A DNA stretch of 64,000 nucleotides from an uncultured Gammaproteobacteria bacterium (lineage in GTDB: Bacteria; Pseudomonadota; Gammaproteobacteria; JAURND01), in contig CAVQQD010000002.1 in NCBI GenBank assembly GCA_963714975.1, forward strand, positions 608,001 through 672,000, given 5' to 3'. A model generated the notes under the pieces. It did not search any database. It saw only the letters and a program-made list of their open reading frames with translations, and was not told where the DNA came from. Positions 45,045 through 55,638 of this stretch are shown piece after piece. Each line of letters starts with the position of its first letter. The stretch's first letter is position 1. A program made the translations under genes and the position numbers.

Positions 45045-45587
45045 ATGAGTCGTGAATTATTAGAATTGAAAGCCGCCCTTCATAAGCTTGATGAGACCGA
45101 TTTAAGTCTTAGAAAGAAACATCAAAATGCTCAAAATGTATTAGGGCAGATAGAAAAATATTTAGAGGATGGATCACCTGATAATGAAACTAAAGCTTTA
45201 ATTAACACTGCACTAGAAAAGATCAAGGGAGTGGCTAAGCATTATGCCCAGAACTGGCATGACCATGACCATGACCATGACCATGATCATGAAATCTCGC
45301 CAGGTCAGCGGGGGTTGGCTGGTGCATGGTTTGTGGCTGCAATTGCGGGACCAATCGCGTCAAGCTATGCACCAGACGAAGTGACTCGACGAATTTTAAT
45401 GTTTTCACCTGTAGAATCATTCGCTCTCTTGGCGTTGTATATAGCTTTTCAGAACTGGCACAATGCTTCTGCTGAAGAAAAAGAGACTTTGAACAGAGTT
45501 AGAAAAATAGAAGAAAATTTTAATCAGAAGCCTGGGGAAGCACAATCAACTAACGGATGGAGTCTACTAACTGATTTCGTTTCCTAA
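45045..45587 (+). CDS. Two-TM hypothetical protein, paralog family member 1, with a His-Asp repeat
   Basis: Shares LMFSPV and NA.SEEKETL-type motifs with 48438-49016; GACCAT hexamer run at about 45258-45290. Confidence 0.75.
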   Translation: MSRELLELKAALHKLDETDLSLRKKHQNAQNVLGQIEKYLEDGSPDNETKALINTALEKIKGVAKHYAQNWHDHDHDHDHDHEISPGQRGLAGAWFVAAIAGPIASSYAPDEVTRRILMFSPVESFALLALYIAFQNWHNASAEEKETLNRVRKIEENFNQKPGEAQSTNGWSLLTDFVS

Positions 45588-45720
45588 TTCAGGGATTTAA
45601 TTTGTTGAGGAGTTCAAACATAATACCAGCCTTCTTTCCTTGCAGAATCCGCTTGTGAGCTCTTCTCGCTTATGCTACATTTTGTACAAGAATTTGTGTA
45701 CATAACATAGTGAGGAATTG

Positions 45721-45968
45721 ATGAAAACTTCTGTTCATGTGTTCATGAACTTAGAATATCAATGAAACGCATACTCGGTGTAGTTCAGCGTGGTCAAGTA
45801 GTGACTGTTTATTCCAGAAAGCTTCCTATTGCCAAAATTATTCCCATCAATAAACGACAGACTGAAATCCAGGAAGTAGGCTTCGGCATGTGGAAGGATT
45901 ATAGTGAAATTGCTGACGTCAATAAATATTTAAGAAAAATAAGGAAAGGACGACAGCATGATATTTGA
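45721..45968 (+). pseudogene. Phd/YefM-type antitoxin with an 8-bp duplication frameshift near the start
   Basis: Removing one TGTTCATG (45732-45747) gives MKTSVHELRISMKRILGVVQRGQVVTV..PIAKIIP..FGMWKD. Confidence 0.75.
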
Positions 45969-46173
45969 TACAGATGTACTTATTTGGTATTTTCGAGGTA
46001 ATAATAAGGCCAGGGAAGCCGTGTATGAAACAAGTGAAATTGGTATAAGTGCTGTTACATTAATGGAATTAATCCAAGGTGTCAGAAATAAACAAGAGCT
46101 TCAGTTGCTGCATAAATTTCTAACAACTAATTCCATCCGAGTTTTTTATTTGACATCCTTGTATCTTAATTCC

Positions 46174-46370
46174 AATCACTCAATGTGGTTAAATATCCAA
46201 GGGCACTTGGATAGGGGTAAATATGCCGGTGACATCCTAAGGCATTAAGCCTGTAGAGGAGATTTTAGCAATTTACCCCGTACTTTATTCATACAGACCG
46301 GACGGTATCTTAGGACTTGAGGTAAATATCAATGATCCTGTATTCACAAGGTTGGTCCGAATAAAGCTAT
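46174..46370 (+). ncRNA. Bridge RNA (5' hairpin, target-binding loop, donor-binding loop)
   Basis: LTG TGACATCCT 46230-38, RTG GAGGAG 46256-61, LDG GACGGTATCT 46301-10, RDG ACAAG 46346-50; closing stems GGGGTAAAT/ATTTACCCC and CTTTATTC/GAATAAAG; 5' and 3' ends approximate. Confidence 0.88.
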
Positions 46371-46401
46371 CCAAGCTATTCGCAACATGTAGGATACTAC
46401 T

Positions 46402-47367
46402 ATGAAGAAAGCATTTCTAGGCATTGATATCAGTAAAAATACATTTGATGTAGCTGTGCTAATGGAAGATAAGATAAAAACTCAAAAATTCAACAATAAC
46501 GAGCAAGGCTTTAATAAATTACTTGTATGGCTAAACCAGAAGGAAATCGTGTTGTCTCAAGCTTGTATGGAAGCAATCAGTATTTACGGGCAGGCATTAG
46601 CCGAATTTCTTTATGCTCAAGAAATCCCTATAAGCGTTGTTAATCCTGCGAGAATTAAAGGATTTTCTCAAAGTGAATTAGCCCGCTCTAAAAATGATAT
46701 TCTTGATGCAAAATTAATTGCAAGATTTTGTAAGTTGATAGGCCCAGAATTATGGCAACCAACTCCTGAACCGATTAAAATATTACAGCAATGGGTTAGG
46801 AGATTGGATGATTTAATCGCTATGCACAGACAAGAAGAAAACCGATTAGAAGTTTCTGATCATTGTTTAAAGGAGCACATACAAGAGAACATTAGCCACT
46901 TAGAAAACAATATTAAGGAAGTTAAAAATGTCATTAAAAATCACATAAATAGCGATCCTGACATGAAGAAAAAAAGCAAGCTATTGCAATCTATTCCTGG
47001 TATTGGAGAAGCAACTACAGCGCAGATATTGGCTTTTATTGGGAATGTGAGTAAATTCAATAATGCGAAAGAATTGGCGGCATTCGTTGGTCTTAATCCC
47101 AAGCAACGACAATCAGGAACCTCTATCAATGGTAGAGCTAGACTCTCTAAAACAGGTGATTCGGCTCTAAGAAAAGCATTTTATATGCCCGCTGTTGTCG
47201 CCATGAGACATAACCCAATACTCAGAAATTTTTCTATGCGACTAGAAAAAACCGGCAAACACAAAATGGTTATTATTGGCGCAGTAATGAGAAAGCTTGT
47301 TCATATGATTTACGGGATACTAAAATCTGAAACCGTGTTTGATCAAAATATATTAAAATTAGCTTGA
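46402..47367 (+). CDS. IS110 family DEDD recombinase/transposase
   Basis: GIDISK, CMEA, VVNPARIK, KNDILDA, SIPGIG, GLNP..RQSGTS, GAVMRKL. Confidence 0.96.
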   Translation: MKKAFLGIDISKNTFDVAVLMEDKIKTQKFNNNEQGFNKLLVWLNQKEIVLSQACMEAISIYGQALAEFLYAQEIPISVVNPARIKGFSQSELARSKNDILDAKLIARFCKLIGPELWQPTPEPIKILQQWVRRLDDLIAMHRQEENRLEVSDHCLKEHIQENISHLENNIKEVKNVIKNHINSDPDMKKKSKLLQSIPGIGEATTAQILAFIGNVSKFNNAKELAAFVGLNPKQRQSGTSINGRARLSKTGDSALRKAFYMPAVVAMRHNPILRNFSMRLEKTGKHKMVIIGAVMRKLVHMIYGILKSETVFDQNILKLA

Positions 47368-48437
47368 CAGATGAGACGGTATCTCCTCGCCCTAAAGGGC
47401 GAGGATTCCTACTGCGGTTACGCAACTTGTGCGCAACTCGCTTCGGTGGGTTCTTGCTTCCTCGAGCGACCTGACTGCGTCTTCTCTCCACAAGCTAGCA
47501 AGCGGTGCCCCCGCTCTAAAATATTGATCGCGGCCAACCACATCGGCATGGTGGCTATAGCCACAACGCACGCACGCAAACTCAGCTTGCGTTTTGCGAT
47601 TGTCTGCACAAACGTGCTGACAGGCAGGACAGGTTCGACTGGTATTTTTCGGATCCACCGCCAGAAAAATGCCACCGTCAATACCCATATCAATACCCAC
47701 TGGGGTAGTAGCTGTTGGCAAGGGTTGACTCTCTTCACGCTCGGTCTGCACTGATACAAACCACAAGCCATTGCATTGCTTAACGATGACGTTTTTAATT
47801 TTCCCTACTACATCGCGACTGTTGCGATAGCGTATCCATCCCAATTTTGGCAGAAAAATACGGTTATTATCTTGATCCAGCTTAAACCCTTTGAAAACGA
47901 AAACTATCTGATGAGTGAGCTTTTTTCTTGAATTTGGGGAAAGCAGCACGGTGGGCGAAGAAGTTTTTAAATCGATCAAGGTCCTTAGTGATTGTTGAAG
48001 GTTGGGAAGGCGATTGTTGCAGGTAGGGCATTTCTTTTTTCCATAGAAGAAATTAATTTACATGCTATCCATCTTTTAGAAGACTATGTACTTTCTGATG
48101 GAATTGAGTTGGCTGATGCGCTAATAGCAGCAACCTCCTTGCACTACGGTGAAGAGATACTTACTTCAAATATTAAACATTATCGTTGTTTGCCCAATTT
48201 AGTTTTAAACAAATTCGTTCCAGCCTAGTCACCTATCTGAGTCTTAAATGAGCTGTCTGCATCGGCTAGGTCTGGTCACAGGCTCTCAGCTCGCGTCCAC
48301 ACGATTGGAGGGATGTGGGGGGTGGTAATTAATTACAAATTCACCCACAAAATTGCTAGACAACTCAGTATGGATAAGTTAATCTTTTGCGACTTTGCAG
48401 GATCCATTCCAATCATCACCTAGCCGAGGAGTAAACT

Positions 48438-49016
48438 ATGAGTACTGAAACGCGAGAACAGCAGCTGAAAAAGGCTATTAAACCGCTTGAAAAGCTTGTT
48501 CATTCATCATTATCTGAGCGGAGCCGCTTTGAACCTATTGCACAACAACATCGAATTGCTCAAAGCGCATTAAAAGTGATAGAGGACTATGAGCCTAATT
48601 CTGAAACAGATTCACAGACTAAGGCCGAAATTCAGCAGGCACTACTAGAGATAAAAAAAGTAGCCAATGACTATGCTCAGCTATGGGAAGAGCATGAAAG
48701 TTCAACGCAGAGTTCAGTAGTAGCTTGTCTGTTCTGGGGAGCTGCTTCAATTGCTGGACCCGTAGTAGGAGCGGAAATTATTGAATCCAATCCGTTGGTC
48801 GGTCATGTTTTAATGTTTTCACCTGTAATATCATTTGCCCTAATGGCGATCTGTCTCTTTTTAACCAAGTGGAATAATGCTTACTCTGAAGAAAAAGAGA
48901 CTTTAAAAAGAATTGAAACAATTCAAGAAAATCTCAATAAGCAGTCTCAGCTTCAGTCGAAGCTTGACGAATCTGGTAATGATGGGCGCACTTTTCCATT
49001 AACTAGTGTTGTCTAA
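48438..49016 (+). CDS. Two-TM hypothetical protein, paralog family member 2
   Basis: Homologous to 45045-45587, including about 115 bp of upstream DNA. Confidence 0.75.
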   Translation: MSTETREQQLKKAIKPLEKLVHSSLSERSRFEPIAQQHRIAQSALKVIEDYEPNSETDSQTKAEIQQALLEIKKVANDYAQLWEEHESSTQSSVVACLFWGAASIAGPVVGAEIIESNPLVGHVLMFSPVISFALMAICLFLTKWNNAYSEEKETLKRIETIQENLNKQSQLQSKLDESGNDGRTFPLTSVV

Positions 49017-49312: not shown

Positions 49313-49954
49313 ATGACTCTTCGGCAATTGCAAAACATTCTTAATACTCTTAATAATCCCACAGCTGCAATTATGCGCCAATATTCTACGTATCAATATG
49401 CCAGAGGCGTATTAATAGCGTTGGAAAATAGTTTAAATCCCAATATAAATAATCCAATACCTAATAATCAAGTTGAAGTGATGAGAGCTATATTAAGTAA
49501 GATAAAGCAAGAGGCTCGACACTATGCTTGCCAATGGTACAAGCGTATTGGTTCATGCAAAAATTTAGCTACAATACTGGCGGTAACTATATGTTCGGCA
49601 GTTGTGGCTACAGCCGGATTTTTAGGAACGATGTTTGCAGTTGGACTTGCGCCGGGCGCATTGTATTTTTGGTTTCTCCCTGTGGTGGGATTAGTGGGGG
49701 CAAGTGTATATGTCTCTTTAAGAGAGGGGGTCAGAGCGCTTACTGAACTGAGAGATATATTTCGCAGAGTTGGCATTTTAGAACGAAACCTGAACCTAAA
49801 TGTTGAGCAGCCTCAGCAACTTCGTGAGGAATCGGAATCTAAGTGGGAATCTAAACGGGGATCTGAGGTAGAATTAGTGTCATTTTCCAATCATCCTCCC
49901 GATCCTCCTGATTCTGAGCGAGGAATAACGCTACCTGGCGCTCTTACGGTATAG
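49313..49954 (+). CDS. Two-TM hypothetical protein, divergent family member 3
   Basis: ILSKIKQEARHYACQW resembles ALEKIKGVAKHYAQNW; TM hairpin; acidic tail. Confidence 0.65.
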   Translation: MTLRQLQNILNTLNNPTAAIMRQYSTYQYARGVLIALENSLNPNINNPIPNNQVEVMRAILSKIKQEARHYACQWYKRIGSCKNLATILAVTICSAVVATAGFLGTMFAVGLAPGALYFWFLPVVGLVGASVYVSLREGVRALTELRDIFRRVGILERNLNLNVEQPQQLREESESKWESKRGSEVELVSFSNHPPDPPDSERGITLPGALTV

Positions 49955-51181: not shown

Positions 51182-51595
51182 TTAGTGGGGAGAGTTCTGT
51201 TGCTCGATATAGTGTCGAATGACAGAGATGGGCGCTCCTCCACAGGAAGCAGCAAAGTAACTGGGAGACCACAGTACTCCTTTCCAATAACACTGCAGAT
51301 TTTGAGAGTGTGCTTGGCGAAGGCGACGAGAAGAAACGCCTTTGAGGCTATTGACTAACCGTGACAACGATATTTTGGGTGGATAATTAACCAATAAGTG
51401 CACATGGTCACGCTCTCCTTCCATTTCGACCAATGTCGCGTCAAAGTCTTCGCAGACACTATAAAATACTTCACTCAAGAGCTCTAGCATGGGTTTTGTA
51501 AAAACACATTTGCGATACTTTGTCACAAATACCAAGTGAGCATGTAAATTAAAAACACAATGTCTGCCGTGTCGGATGTCTATTGAACTATTCAT
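51182..51595 (-). CDS. tnpA: IS200/IS605 Y1 transposase TnpA
   Basis: HLVFVTKYR, DHVHLL (HUH), LKGVSSR, LWSPSYF, YIEQQ. Confidence 0.97.
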   Translation of the reverse strand: MNSSIDIRHGRHCVFNLHAHLVFVTKYRKCVFTKPMLELLSEVFYSVCEDFDATLVEMEGERDHVHLLVNYPPKISLSRLVNSLKGVSSRRLRQAHSQNLQCYWKGVLWSPSYFAASCGGAPISVIRHYIEQQNSPH

Positions 51596-51621
51596 AGACC
51601 AATAGTATATTCATTGGTACT

Positions 51622-52794
51622 ATGAAAATCAAAAAAGCCTATCGTTTTCGCTTAAAACCCAGCCAAGAGATTGAGCAGCAACTGTCCGCTTATGCAGGAC
51701 ATTGTCGATTTGTATGGAATAAATGTTGCCGCATGAATTTGGAACGCTTGCAACGACAGGAGCGTATTCTGCGCTATGCAGAATTTGATTTTTGGGTGAA
51801 GCAATGGAAGCAATCTGCAGAATATGGTTTTTTGAAAGAATGTCCAGCACATATCGTGCAACAAAAATTGCGTGATTTAGATCGAGCATTTTCCGATGCA
51901 TTTGACAAAACGCAGCCAAATAAACGATTACCTCGCTTCAAGAAAAAAGGTCGTCACGATAGTTTTCGATTTCCGGAGCCGAAGCAAATCGAATTAGAAG
52001 GCAACCGTCTGAAATTACCGAAATTAGGTTGGATTCATTTTTACCGAAGCCAGGAGGTCATAGGGGACATACGAAATGTGACGGTATCGCGGCAAGGAAA
52101 ACATTGGTATATCAGTATCCAAGTACAACAAGACATCTCTTCGCAGTCAACAGCAGTCGATAGCGTAGGTATAGACGCAGGCATTGCAAAATTCGCGACC
52201 CTATCCAATGGTGACACTATAGAATCCTTGAATAGTTTTAGGCAGATAGAAAAAAGATTAGGGATAGAACAGCGCAAATTAGCGAAGAAGCAAAAATTTT
52301 CTGGGCGATGGAAGAAGCAAGTGGCTCGAGTAGGGGCACTGCATCAAAAAGCATCGAACATGAGACGAGATTTTTTACACAAGACTACAACCCGCATCAG
52401 CAAAAGCCACGCGGTAGTGGTTGTGGAAGATTTGCAAGTAAAAAATATGAGTCGATCCGCATCGGGAGACTTACAAAATCCCGGGGTGAATGTTGCTGCG
52501 AAGTCTGGATTAAACAAGGCGATATTAGACCAGGGCTGGTATGAATTCAGGCGACAATTGGGATATAAGCTGACGTGGAATGGAGGGATGTTCATTGAAG
52601 TATCACCCCACTATACCAGCCAGCGTTGTTCTCATTGTTTGCATGTTGCCAAGGAAAACCGTCAGACCCAAAGTGAATTTGTGTGTGTATCGTGCGGATA
52701 TGCAGCAAATGCTGATTTGAACGCGGCGAAAAATATTTTAGCAGCAGGGCATGCTGTGATGGCTCGTGGAGCAAGCGCGTTGGGTGCGGCGTAG
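51622..52794 (+). CDS. tnpB: RNA-guided endonuclease TnpB
   Basis: GIDAG / VEDL / NADLNAAKNI; CSHC..CVSC. Confidence 0.96.
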   Translation: MKIKKAYRFRLKPSQEIEQQLSAYAGHCRFVWNKCCRMNLERLQRQERILRYAEFDFWVKQWKQSAEYGFLKECPAHIVQQKLRDLDRAFSDAFDKTQPNKRLPRFKKKGRHDSFRFPEPKQIELEGNRLKLPKLGWIHFYRSQEVIGDIRNVTVSRQGKHWYISIQVQQDISSQSTAVDSVGIDAGIAKFATLSNGDTIESLNSFRQIEKRLGIEQRKLAKKQKFSGRWKKQVARVGALHQKASNMRRDFLHKTTTRISKSHAVVVVEDLQVKNMSRSASGDLQNPGVNVAAKSGLNKAILDQGWYEFRRQLGYKLTWNGGMFIEVSPHYTSQRCSHCLHVAKENRQTQSEFVCVSCGYAANADLNAAKNILAAGHAVMARGASALGAA

Positions 52795-52867
52795 AAACGA
52801 GAACCTCATACTCGTGGCACAGCCACATGTATGGAATCTCCGGCATTTATGCCGGAGAGGATGTCAA

Positions 52868-53003
52868 AAACGCTACCCCCTAAATTAGCCTCGTATAAAC
52901 CATGATGCATTTCTTGTATGGCTTTTACCAACACCTTATCTTTTATCTTCTCTTGCAATGCCCACTTATGAAACTCTTTATTTTTCAAAATATACATTGG
53001 CAT
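52868..53003 (-). pseudogene. RelE/ParE-family toxin 5' fragment truncated by the IS605 right end
   Basis: YILKNKEFHKWA..I.D..L..AI.EM..GLYEANLGGSV stops exactly at the IS boundary. Confidence 0.75.
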
Positions 53004-55218: not shown

Positions 55219-55602
55219 TTGCATTGCAGTAAGAATAATTCAGAAGGTTTTGTGCTGATTACCGCATTATTATATTTAATGGTAATAACCCTACTGGTAA
55301 TGAGCGCTTTTGGCAGCAGTATCCTACAAGGTCAAATGACACAGCACATGTATGATGAGTTGCAAGCATTAGAGCGAGCTCAGGCAGCATTATTAACAGC
55401 AGAGCAATCAATTCAAGGCACAGAACTGATGGGAGAGGGGAGTGATCATGGGGTAAATTTTTCTTTTAAACGGCTGACGGAAAATAAAGGCGGTATTTAT
55501 TATCAAGTAAATGCCACAAGTACTTTTGCTGCGGCTAAAAGCCAACTGCAAAGCATTTGGCTGATGCCGGATAAAAAAAGAGTGTGGTGGTCGGCGATTT
55601 GA
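55219..55602 (+). CDS. pilX: PilX-like minor pilin
   Basis: EGFVLITALLYLMVITLL..ALERAQAALLTAEQ..YYQVNA; start uncertain. Confidence 0.65.
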   Translation: MHCSKNNSEGFVLITALLYLMVITLLVMSAFGSSILQGQMTQHMYDELQALERAQAALLTAEQSIQGTELMGEGSDHGVNFSFKRLTENKGGIYYQVNATSTFAAAKSQLQSIWLMPDKKRVWWSAI

Positions 55603-55638
55603 CATCCTCACCTTCCTAAGGGAAGGTGAGGATGTCAA
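55599..55638. repeat. 40-bp palindrome made of two IS605-like right-end termini
   Basis: TTGACATCCTCACCTTCC-TAAG-GGAAGGTGAGGATGTCAA (18-bp perfect arms). Confidence 0.85.

Follow-up and report, generated by a model that had tools for sequence, protein, structure and literature searches.

An IS621-like IS110 element probably specialised on the right ends of IS605-type tnpB elements

Specialisation of one mobile element on the end of another has a precedent in IS4321 and IS5075, IS1111-group elements with a DEDD transposase which, as Partridge and Hall are said to have described in 2003, insert at one fixed point of the inverted repeats that terminate Tn21-family transposons. Unlike the element analysed here, they have their guide RNA downstream of the gene and their target is the inverted repeat of a DDE transposon, not the end of an RNA-guided element. 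Elements with DEDD transposases specialised on repetitive extragenic palindromes (REPs), attC sites or Tn21 inverted repeats are established (PMC11208160, PMC11187229). The IS1111-attC group (e.g. ISKpn4) targets the folded, multicopy integron attC site (PMC11187229), and for ISPpu10, an IS110-family element of Pseudomonas putida, the target stem-loop is reported to raise both efficiency and fidelity (10.64898/2026.03.19.712850, a 2026 preprint). IS621 of Escherichia coli, a member of the IS110 group, has a REP sequence as its natural target (wild-type ATCAGGCCTAC; PMC11208160), and according to the guide rule of Durrant et al. (PMC11208160) in each bridge RNA loop 8-9 nt on the 5' side pair with the bottom strand and 4-7 nt on the 3' side with the top strand, the core being part of both. 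Here we analyse a nested locus of an uncultured gammaproteobacterium (assembly GCA_963714975.1, contig CAVQQD010000002.1, positions 608,001 to 672,000; this whole stretch of 64,000 nt is called the window), in which an IS621-like IS110 insertion sequence (IS) lies within the right end (RE) of an IS605-type tnpB element. We consider it very probable that this IS110 is specialised on such REs as a multicopy safe haven, inactivation of the host element being a side effect.

Three elements are nested at the locus: a decayed, minus-strand IS605-type tnpB element has split a vapC gene and has in turn been split by an IS110-family element on the plus strand. The features concerned are the following.

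45958..46149, plus strand: N-terminal part of vapC, PIN-domain, 64 codons (Pfam PIN match, E 1.2e-05; open reading frame (ORF) listing)
46150..46157, minus strand: last 8 nt of the IS605-type RE, GATGTCAA, ending in TCAA; left target (LT) of the IS110
46158..46159, plus strand: left copy of the CT core dinucleotide (a single CT stands at the same point in uninterrupted REs)
46160..47384, plus strand: IS110-family insertion sequence of 1,225 bp, the right core CT (47383-47384) included
46402..47367, plus strand: recombinase gene, 321 aa (Pfam DEDD_Tnp_IS110, PF01548, 4.9e-23; Transposase_20, PF02371, 9.5e-29)
47364..47369, plus strand: TTGACA, candidate -35 box, which a spacer of 17 nt would separate from TATCTT (46162-46167) downstream of it in the excised circle; sequence reading
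47385..47408, minus strand: subterminal RE hairpin of the tnpB element, CCTCGCCC-TAAA-GGGCGAGG plus ATTC (GAAT on the top strand of the element)
47385..48045 (plus 46150..46157), minus strand: decayed family-A IS605-type tnpB element (compared with the genome copies by blastn and alignment; Pfam Cas12f1-like_TNB, 1.4e-11)
48046..48228 (start approximate), plus strand: C-terminal part of vapC (ORF 47992-48228; tnpB-element homology stops at about 48045)

The boundaries of the IS110 were set from four full copies that are 99-100% identical and have differing flanks. The left junction reads TTGACATC-CT followed by TGTATC and the right junction ACGGTAT-CT followed by CCTCGCCCTAAAGGGCGAGGATTCC, so that the IS110 is inserted 2 nt beyond the foot of the RE hairpin, between the hairpin and the terminal GATGTCAA. 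The LT at 46150-46157 corresponds to TGACATC of the left target guide (46230-46236), and the right target (RT) is CCTC, the first four bases of the hairpin at 47385-47408. The tnpB element of the window has lost its 5' part, carries a 390-bp internal deletion and a frameshift, and retains only its TNB part.

The nature of the target was established from the other copies of this tnpB-element family of the source genome, called family A. Its intact copies encode a 402-aa TnpB with HTH_OrfB_IS605, OrfB_IS605 and Cas12f1-like TNB domains, and HTH_OrfB_IS605, OrfB_IS605 and TNB domains were also found in the TnpB of an IS110-bearing copy (L002:2768-3976). All family-A copies agree in sequence as far as ...GAAT-CCTCGCCC-TTTA-GGGCG(A/G)GG-AGGA(T/A/C)GTCAA and diverge right after it. 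The RE is thus an 8-bp hairpin followed by AGGATGTCAA, TCAA ending 10 nt from the hairpin foot. This geometry is that of IS608, in which a subterminal hairpin is followed by the cleavage site, TCAA, 10 nt 3' of the hairpin foot (PMC3201880). Family A has no tnpA of its own; three Y1_Tnp genes are present in the genome, one of them in an element of a second family (family B), and TnpA may be supplied to family A in trans. A TAG stop was observed in two of the three tnpA copies.

Uninterrupted paralogous REs hold a single CT, e.g. TTGACGTC-CT-CCTCGCCCTGAAGGGCGAGGATTCC at G000:C3:268402, and a metagenome contig (run X5, record 7) is an exact empty site in which ...TTTGACATC is directly joined to CTCCTCGCC..., both supporting TTGACATC-CT-CCTCGCCC... 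as the pre-insertion site. The X5 contig was the sole informative one, the read-based check of metagenome runs having otherwise given short contigs and no joints. A search for sequencing runs that contain the stretch gave DNA runs with a small share of it and no RNA run. The 13-nt target spans the RE from the hairpin foot to just short of the terminal TCAA. Since it covers precisely this stretch, these results indicate that the IS110 lineage is specialised on IS200/IS605-family right ends. The placement between RE hairpin and terminal TCAA, claimed in a preliminary description made from the window alone, is thus borne out by the sequence and by the family-A alignment, the two being 1.2 kb apart.

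Four of the seven family-A copies (window 47385-48045; C3:468965; C3:329120; C3:268411) have a full RE and four different left-side cut points, a pattern that resembles 5' truncation. A related hairpin end, TTGACAT-CCTCGCCCTGAAG(A/G)GCGAGGATTTCTACTGC, was found at G000:C2:1166515 and C2:1181452, 15 kb apart; here the spacing from TCAA to stem is 3 nt shorter than in family A, and both ends are unoccupied.

The left end of the IS110 is non-coding over 242 nt (46160-46401; fold z-score -2.5), and its predicted fold has two internal loops in which the guides lie; a stem closes each loop and a hairpin tops it. Of the 34 consensus pairs in an alignment of 25 related sequences, 26 showed compensatory changes on both sides. 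The elements of this putative bridge RNA are as follows.

46194..46213, plus strand: 5' hairpin of the bridge RNA (fold; compensatory changes in 5/5 pairs among 25 sequences, columns 42-46/55-59)
46214..46279, plus strand: target-binding loop with basal stem GGGGTAAAT/ATTTACCCC, left target guide (LTG), apical hairpin and right target guide (RTG) (fold, stem covariation)
46230-46238, plus strand: LTG, TGACATCCT, equal to LT plus core CT
46256-46261, plus strand: RTG, GAGGAG, reverse complement of CT plus CCTC
46296..46357, plus strand: donor-binding loop with left donor guide (LDG), apical hairpin and right donor guide (RDG) (the apical hairpin covaries, alignment columns 169-177/190-200)
46301-46310, plus strand: LDG, GACGGTATCT, equal to the IS right end plus core CT
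46346-46350, plus strand: RDG, ACAAG, reverse complement of CT plus TGT at the IS left end

All four window guides (4/4) satisfy the guide rule. When left ends were shuffled and submitted to a permissive loop-layout search, 1 in 5,000 reached the observed 0 mismatches in the 11 non-core target positions; together with an expectation of 0.06 exact 13-mers in the genome, this makes chance a poor explanation. An Rfam scan of 45500-48500 detected no bridge-RNA or omega-RNA family, the only hit being a weak sub-threshold match on the RE hairpin.

The recombinase matched the PDB sequences of the ISCro4 transposase (E 2.2e-72) and the IS621 transposase (8wt6, E 1.2e-70) over residues 4-315. D9, E57 and D102 do not vary among 31 homologues, and D99 and S241 hardly vary; we take these five to be the catalytic residues. 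The CT core is present at both junctions in 4/4 full copies, which are without terminal inverted repeats. Every testable feature of membership was found, and the element is an active-looking, IS621-like member of the IS110 group of the IS110 family. It shares with IS621 the homologous recombinase, the 5' non-coding bridge RNA with target and donor loops, the CT core, a 5' guide that reads as the top strand (9 nt), a 3' guide that is a reverse complement (6 nt here) and a promoter-like motif across the circle junction. On the other hand, the natural target of IS621 is a REP sequence, and here it is the RE of an IS605-type tnpB element. The preliminary description had read the locus as an IS110 whose bridge RNA carries a target loop directed against an IS605-type RE and a donor loop directed against the rejoined ends of the IS110 itself; the Pfam and PDB matches, the fold and the guide matches all support this, and its four guide motifs, TGACATCCT, GAGGAG, GACGGTATCT and ACAAG, lie where it had placed them.

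A promoter spanning the circle junction has been described for such elements (PMC11208160), and the TGACA of the candidate -35 box is kept at a matching distance from the core in the right ends of relatives. Two other readings of these motifs were rejected: the target's own TTGACA lies only 6 nt from TATCTT and was discarded as driver of the integrated element, and the resemblance of the IS110 right end to the RE terminus (TGTCAA) was judged a by-product of the conserved -35 box.

Six IS110 insertions were found in the source genome: four full copies, each with its 321-aa ORF intact, a copy cut short at 721 nt and a remnant of 38 nt. The RE-terminal left flank TTGAC(A/T)TCCT is present in 5/6 of them, and of the four insertions with a preserved right end, three lie directly against the RE hairpin, and their outer flanks all differ. 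All RE insertions have the same orientation relative to the RE, and in the window and in a relative from another genome (L017, see below) the IS110 gene is antiparallel to tnpB. A search for the exact 13-mer target, in the form read by either guide allele, found no unoccupied site left in the genome. These results bear on the possibility of co-amplification, in which a single ancestral IS110 insertion was followed by copying of the composite by TnpA, recombination or gene conversion. Such copying would fit the finding that a single RE sequence subfamily (perfect hairpin, TTGACATC) accounts for the three occupied REs. The three IS110/tnpB composites differ, however, in their outer flanks and in the left-end truncation points of the tnpB element, indicating that they are separate loci and not copies of one composite, and two further insertions at other loci show the RE-terminal left flank. 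Moreover, the guides are complementary to the junctions, the separated TCAA should stop TnpA from moving a composite, and in other organisms related IS110s occupy the corresponding position of unrelated IS605 families and have RTGs altered to match. We therefore consider it highly improbable.

The left guide is polymorphic within the genome. At position 46234, within the LTG, the window copy and C3:467731 have A, and C3:329104, C1:91646 and a copy outside IS605 ends (discussed below) have T. The RE ends likewise occur in two forms, TTGACATC and TTGACTTC, and the T-allele copy at C1:91646 has a TTGACTTC flank.

Relatives of the element were sought in other genomes. A single-protein query for related loci gave no relative and the search was repeated with alignment A1 as query; target boundaries were set automatically for 42 of the 160 loci, to which the target analysis was limited, and the guide survey of genome loci covered 65/80, the 15 omitted being further copies from the same Rickettsia-endosymbiont genome or short or partial matches. 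Four relatives (L017, L097, L098 and L099; 61-66% identity) lie at the same RE position, in three other IS605-type REs. L017 (61% aa identity, from a gammaproteobacterial metagenome-assembled genome) lies in an element with a tnpA start and an intact 407-aa TnpB (domains HTH_OrfB_IS605, OrfB_IS605 and zinc-ribbon/TNB), 2 nt away from the RE hairpin; the RTG of L017, GGAGAG, matches the RT CTCC at the start of the right flank. In L097 and L098 (66%) the RTG GGTGAG matches the RT CACC, and the right flank CACCGCCATAAATGACGGTGATTCC is a hairpin RE; these flanks are short (279-416 nt), and all that they show of a TnpB is an ORF with a TnpB-like C-terminal tail. The LT and RT of L099 (65%) are those of L097 and L098. 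A tblastn search with two TnpB proteins against the 160 loci gave a match in L017 only. A further locus, L038 (LTG TGACATTCT, flank GTGACAGTCT), showed no recognisable TnpB in 370 nt and was left out of the RE-target count.

The RTG therefore covaries with the hairpin stem across lineages, following the RTs CCTC, CTCC and CACC: the left guide is matched to the conserved terminal linker, and the right guide to the opening four bases of the hairpin stem, with which it varies. At most one mismatch in 11 positions was found in 20 cognate guide/flank pairs (33 distinct loci), as against 2.4% of 1,034 non-cognate pairs. In a tree the window element, L097 and L099 form a clade (support 100/99), and L017 falls in the same unresolved group, so that a single origin is possible. 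The preliminary description had proposed a survey of homologous insertions for IS605 right-end flanks and an examination of guide/target covariation. The first gave 5/6 insertions of the genome with the RE-terminal left flank and four relatives at the RE position. In the second the RTG follows the RT between lineages and the A and T alleles of the LTG mirror the two RE variants, with one exception taken up below. The proposal that this IS110 is specialised on a conserved multicopy motif of TnpB elements is supported by the five genome insertions and the four outside relatives with covarying right guides.

Other IS110 relatives with unrelated guides (L033, L079, L088) also adjoin GC-rich hairpins, e.g. 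AACCCTCCTTTTCTAAGGAGGG in L033, and hairpin-adjacent targets may be common in this part of the IS110 family. ISPpu10 and ISPpu9 likewise insert beside the GC-rich stem-loop of a repeat, the insertion described here lying 2 nt from the foot with the RT in the stem; they differ in that they target REPs and not transposon ends, and in that the stem of ISPpu10 is on the LT side and that of the window element on the RT side.

Family B provides a contrast for the specificity of the guides. One of its elements lies in the window.

51182-52868: family-B IS605-type element, complete and apparently intact, with tnpA at 51182-51595, tnpB at 51622-52794 and the RE ending at 52868

Its tnpA is divergent (137 aa, Y1_Tnp 147 bits) and its 390-aa TnpB has HTH_OrfB_IS605, OrfB_IS605 and zinc-ribbon/TNB domains. 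The right end in the window reads GGAATCTCCGGCATTTATGCCGGAGAGGATGTCAA; the family-B end, TTGACATC-CT-CTCC, has an identical LT and differs from the guide in two RT bases. Six family-B REs are present in the genome, including that of the intact tnpA and tnpB element in the window, and 6/6 are empty. They amount to a natural specificity control: six sites that differ at two RT bases only, all empty.

The target might instead be a generic REP-like hairpin repeat, its link to tnpB being incidental. REPs are used by many IS110 members (PMC11208160), and the window contains a stand-alone, perfect 40-nt palindrome (55599-55638, TTGACATCCTCACCTTCC-TAAG-GGAAGGTGAGGATGTCAA) that has the IS605 RE terminal motif on both arms, one on each strand; its would-be RT is CACC, as in L097-L099, and it adjoins no tnpB. 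In the genome, however, every family-A hairpin copy is followed by the conserved tnpB 3' region, and no high-copy free REP with the motif was found. Moreover, family B has both tnpA and tnpB, and the target in L017 lies 3' of an intact TnpB gene. A REP-like target is thus very unlikely.

The position of the insertion suggests what it would do to the host element. The omega-RNA (reRNA) consists of the tnpB 3' region, the RE and about 16 nt of flank (review PMC13565253). The IS110 places 1.2 kb between hairpin and cleavage site, and between omega-RNA scaffold and guide, which should block TnpA cleavage at the RE and break the guide RNA. From this anatomy and the biology of IS608 and ISDra2, the insertion would be expected, as the preliminary description proposed, to immobilise the host IS and to disarm TnpB. 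Three family-A copies have a full left end and an intact tnpB; their REs read TTGACTTC-CT-CCCC (two copies) or TTGACGTC-CT-CCCC (one copy), depart from the guides at one or two positions and are empty. The pattern of occupied and unoccupied copies could have arisen because copies decayed once locked, because live elements escaped, or simply because the two RE subfamilies differ in age.

Such effects raise the question of selected antagonism, in which the specialisation would exist because insertion disables the host by cutting off the TnpA cleavage site and the omega-RNA guide, the IS110 acting as parasite or competitor. The insertion point is the one place that splits both hairpin from TCAA and scaffold from guide, the two LTG alleles mirror the two RE variants, and all occupied copies are defective, as decay after locking would produce. 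Nevertheless, the RE subfamily that fits the guides best is one in which no copy has a complete left end; the three intact family-A copies with full left ends and the six family-B REs are mismatched and unoccupied; and any conserved multicopy site would yield the same pattern. Antagonism as the selected function is thus unlikely. A related idea, a guide-versus-target arms race between two RNA-guided transposons, draws on the way the bridge RNA tracks RE variants, with A and T left alleles within the genome and right guides GAGG, GGAG and GGTG between lineages; the mismatched ends of the still-intact TnpB elements would then count as escape. Since excision of IS110 elements is scarless (PMC11208160), the lock on TnpA cleavage and omega-RNA might be reversible, and the IS110 would be a natural programmable, perhaps reversible, silencer of TnpB elements. 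We regard the arms race as unlikely.

The favoured explanation is that of an IS621-like element that uses IS605-type REs as a safe haven. By analogy with IS621, the element would be excised as a circle, the rejoined ends of which (ACGGTAT-CT-TGTATC) would be read by the donor loop; the junction promoter (TTGACA, 17 nt, TATCTT) would drive bridge RNA and recombinase; the target loop would pair with TGACATC-CT on the bottom strand and with CT-CCTC on the top strand; and recombination would take place at the CT core. The REs would offer a multicopy, dispensable landing site that moves between hosts, and this use would resemble that of REPs, attC sites and Tn21 inverted repeats by other IS110/IS1111 elements.

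Several points weigh against this explanation. One full copy, G000:C2:1202797-1204029, lies outside any IS605 end. Its flank, GTCCTTC-CT-CCTC, fits the RT at 4/4 positions and the T-allele left guide at 6/9, those nearest the core. C3:329104 is an exception to the correspondence of alleles, having the T allele and an A-type flank. The covariation across lineages comprises four IS110 lineages and three RT types only, and the right flank of one of the four, L099, shows no recognisable hairpin. The junction motif pattern TTGACANCCTTGTATCTT occurred in 0/400 other sampled genomes of the class and only in the source genome (1/401), so the lineage is rare there. The three occupied family-A copies are already defective: 3/3 are without the left-end hairpin and 2/3 have a broken tnpB. 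Finally, the bridge RNA that 46160-47384 probably encodes in its 5' non-coding end, the circle and the promoter are predicted from homology and motifs, and the safe-haven purpose and the effects on TnpA and TnpB are likewise our interpretation of the anatomy.

Some details of these copies may be added. The occupied family-A copies are truncated in the window, frameshifted at C3:329120 and with an intact 402-aa ORF at C3:468965. Besides the T allele of the left guide, the copy at G000:C2:1202797-1204029 has three further private substitutions, and it seems to interrupt an ORF about 15 codons past its ATG. Searches at the family and order levels (9 genomes each) gave, besides the source genome, one match only, with 28% identity. 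By NuoN, the closest named relatives of the source organism are metagenome-assembled genomes of uncultured Gammaproteobacteria, with at most 76% identity; those of Coxiellaceae reach about 58-60%, and no listed pathogen was near.

The vapC frame, by arithmetic, runs on from 45958-46149 into 48046-48228; it is thus kept across the whole insert. Three paralogous ORFs of 180-213 aa flank the vapBC locus (window 45045-45587, 48438-49016 and 49313-49954) and have in common an N-terminal part that is helical, a hydrophobic hairpin and, at the C-terminus, an EEKETL...ENLN motif.

In the parts of the IS110 literature covered (PMC11208160, PMC11187229, 10.64898/2026.08.14.744561, 10.64898/2026.03.19.712850 and 10.1101/2024.06.21.599552), with supplementary target tables and ISfinder outside that scope, no report of a TnpB-element right end as an IS110 target was found. 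The target tables of Durrant et al. and Siddiquee et al. may already contain the motif without the IS605 reading. What is new is apparently the target class, the right end of TnpB elements; the bridge-RNA mechanism itself is as in IS621. The IS1111-attC group, likewise directed at a folded multicopy site, differs from the element described here in IS group, target and host element.

IS110 bridge recombinases and TnpB/omega-RNA nucleases are two transposon-borne RNA-guided systems that are now being developed as genome editors. The locus shows both nested in nature, with a bridge-RNA clade that is probably aimed at the right ends of IS200/IS605-family elements. It also offers a case of natural guide reprogramming, in the form of three right-guide/target pairs and one single-base left-guide polymorphism within one genome, and makes it testable whether insertion of an IS110 switches off TnpA excision and TnpB homing.

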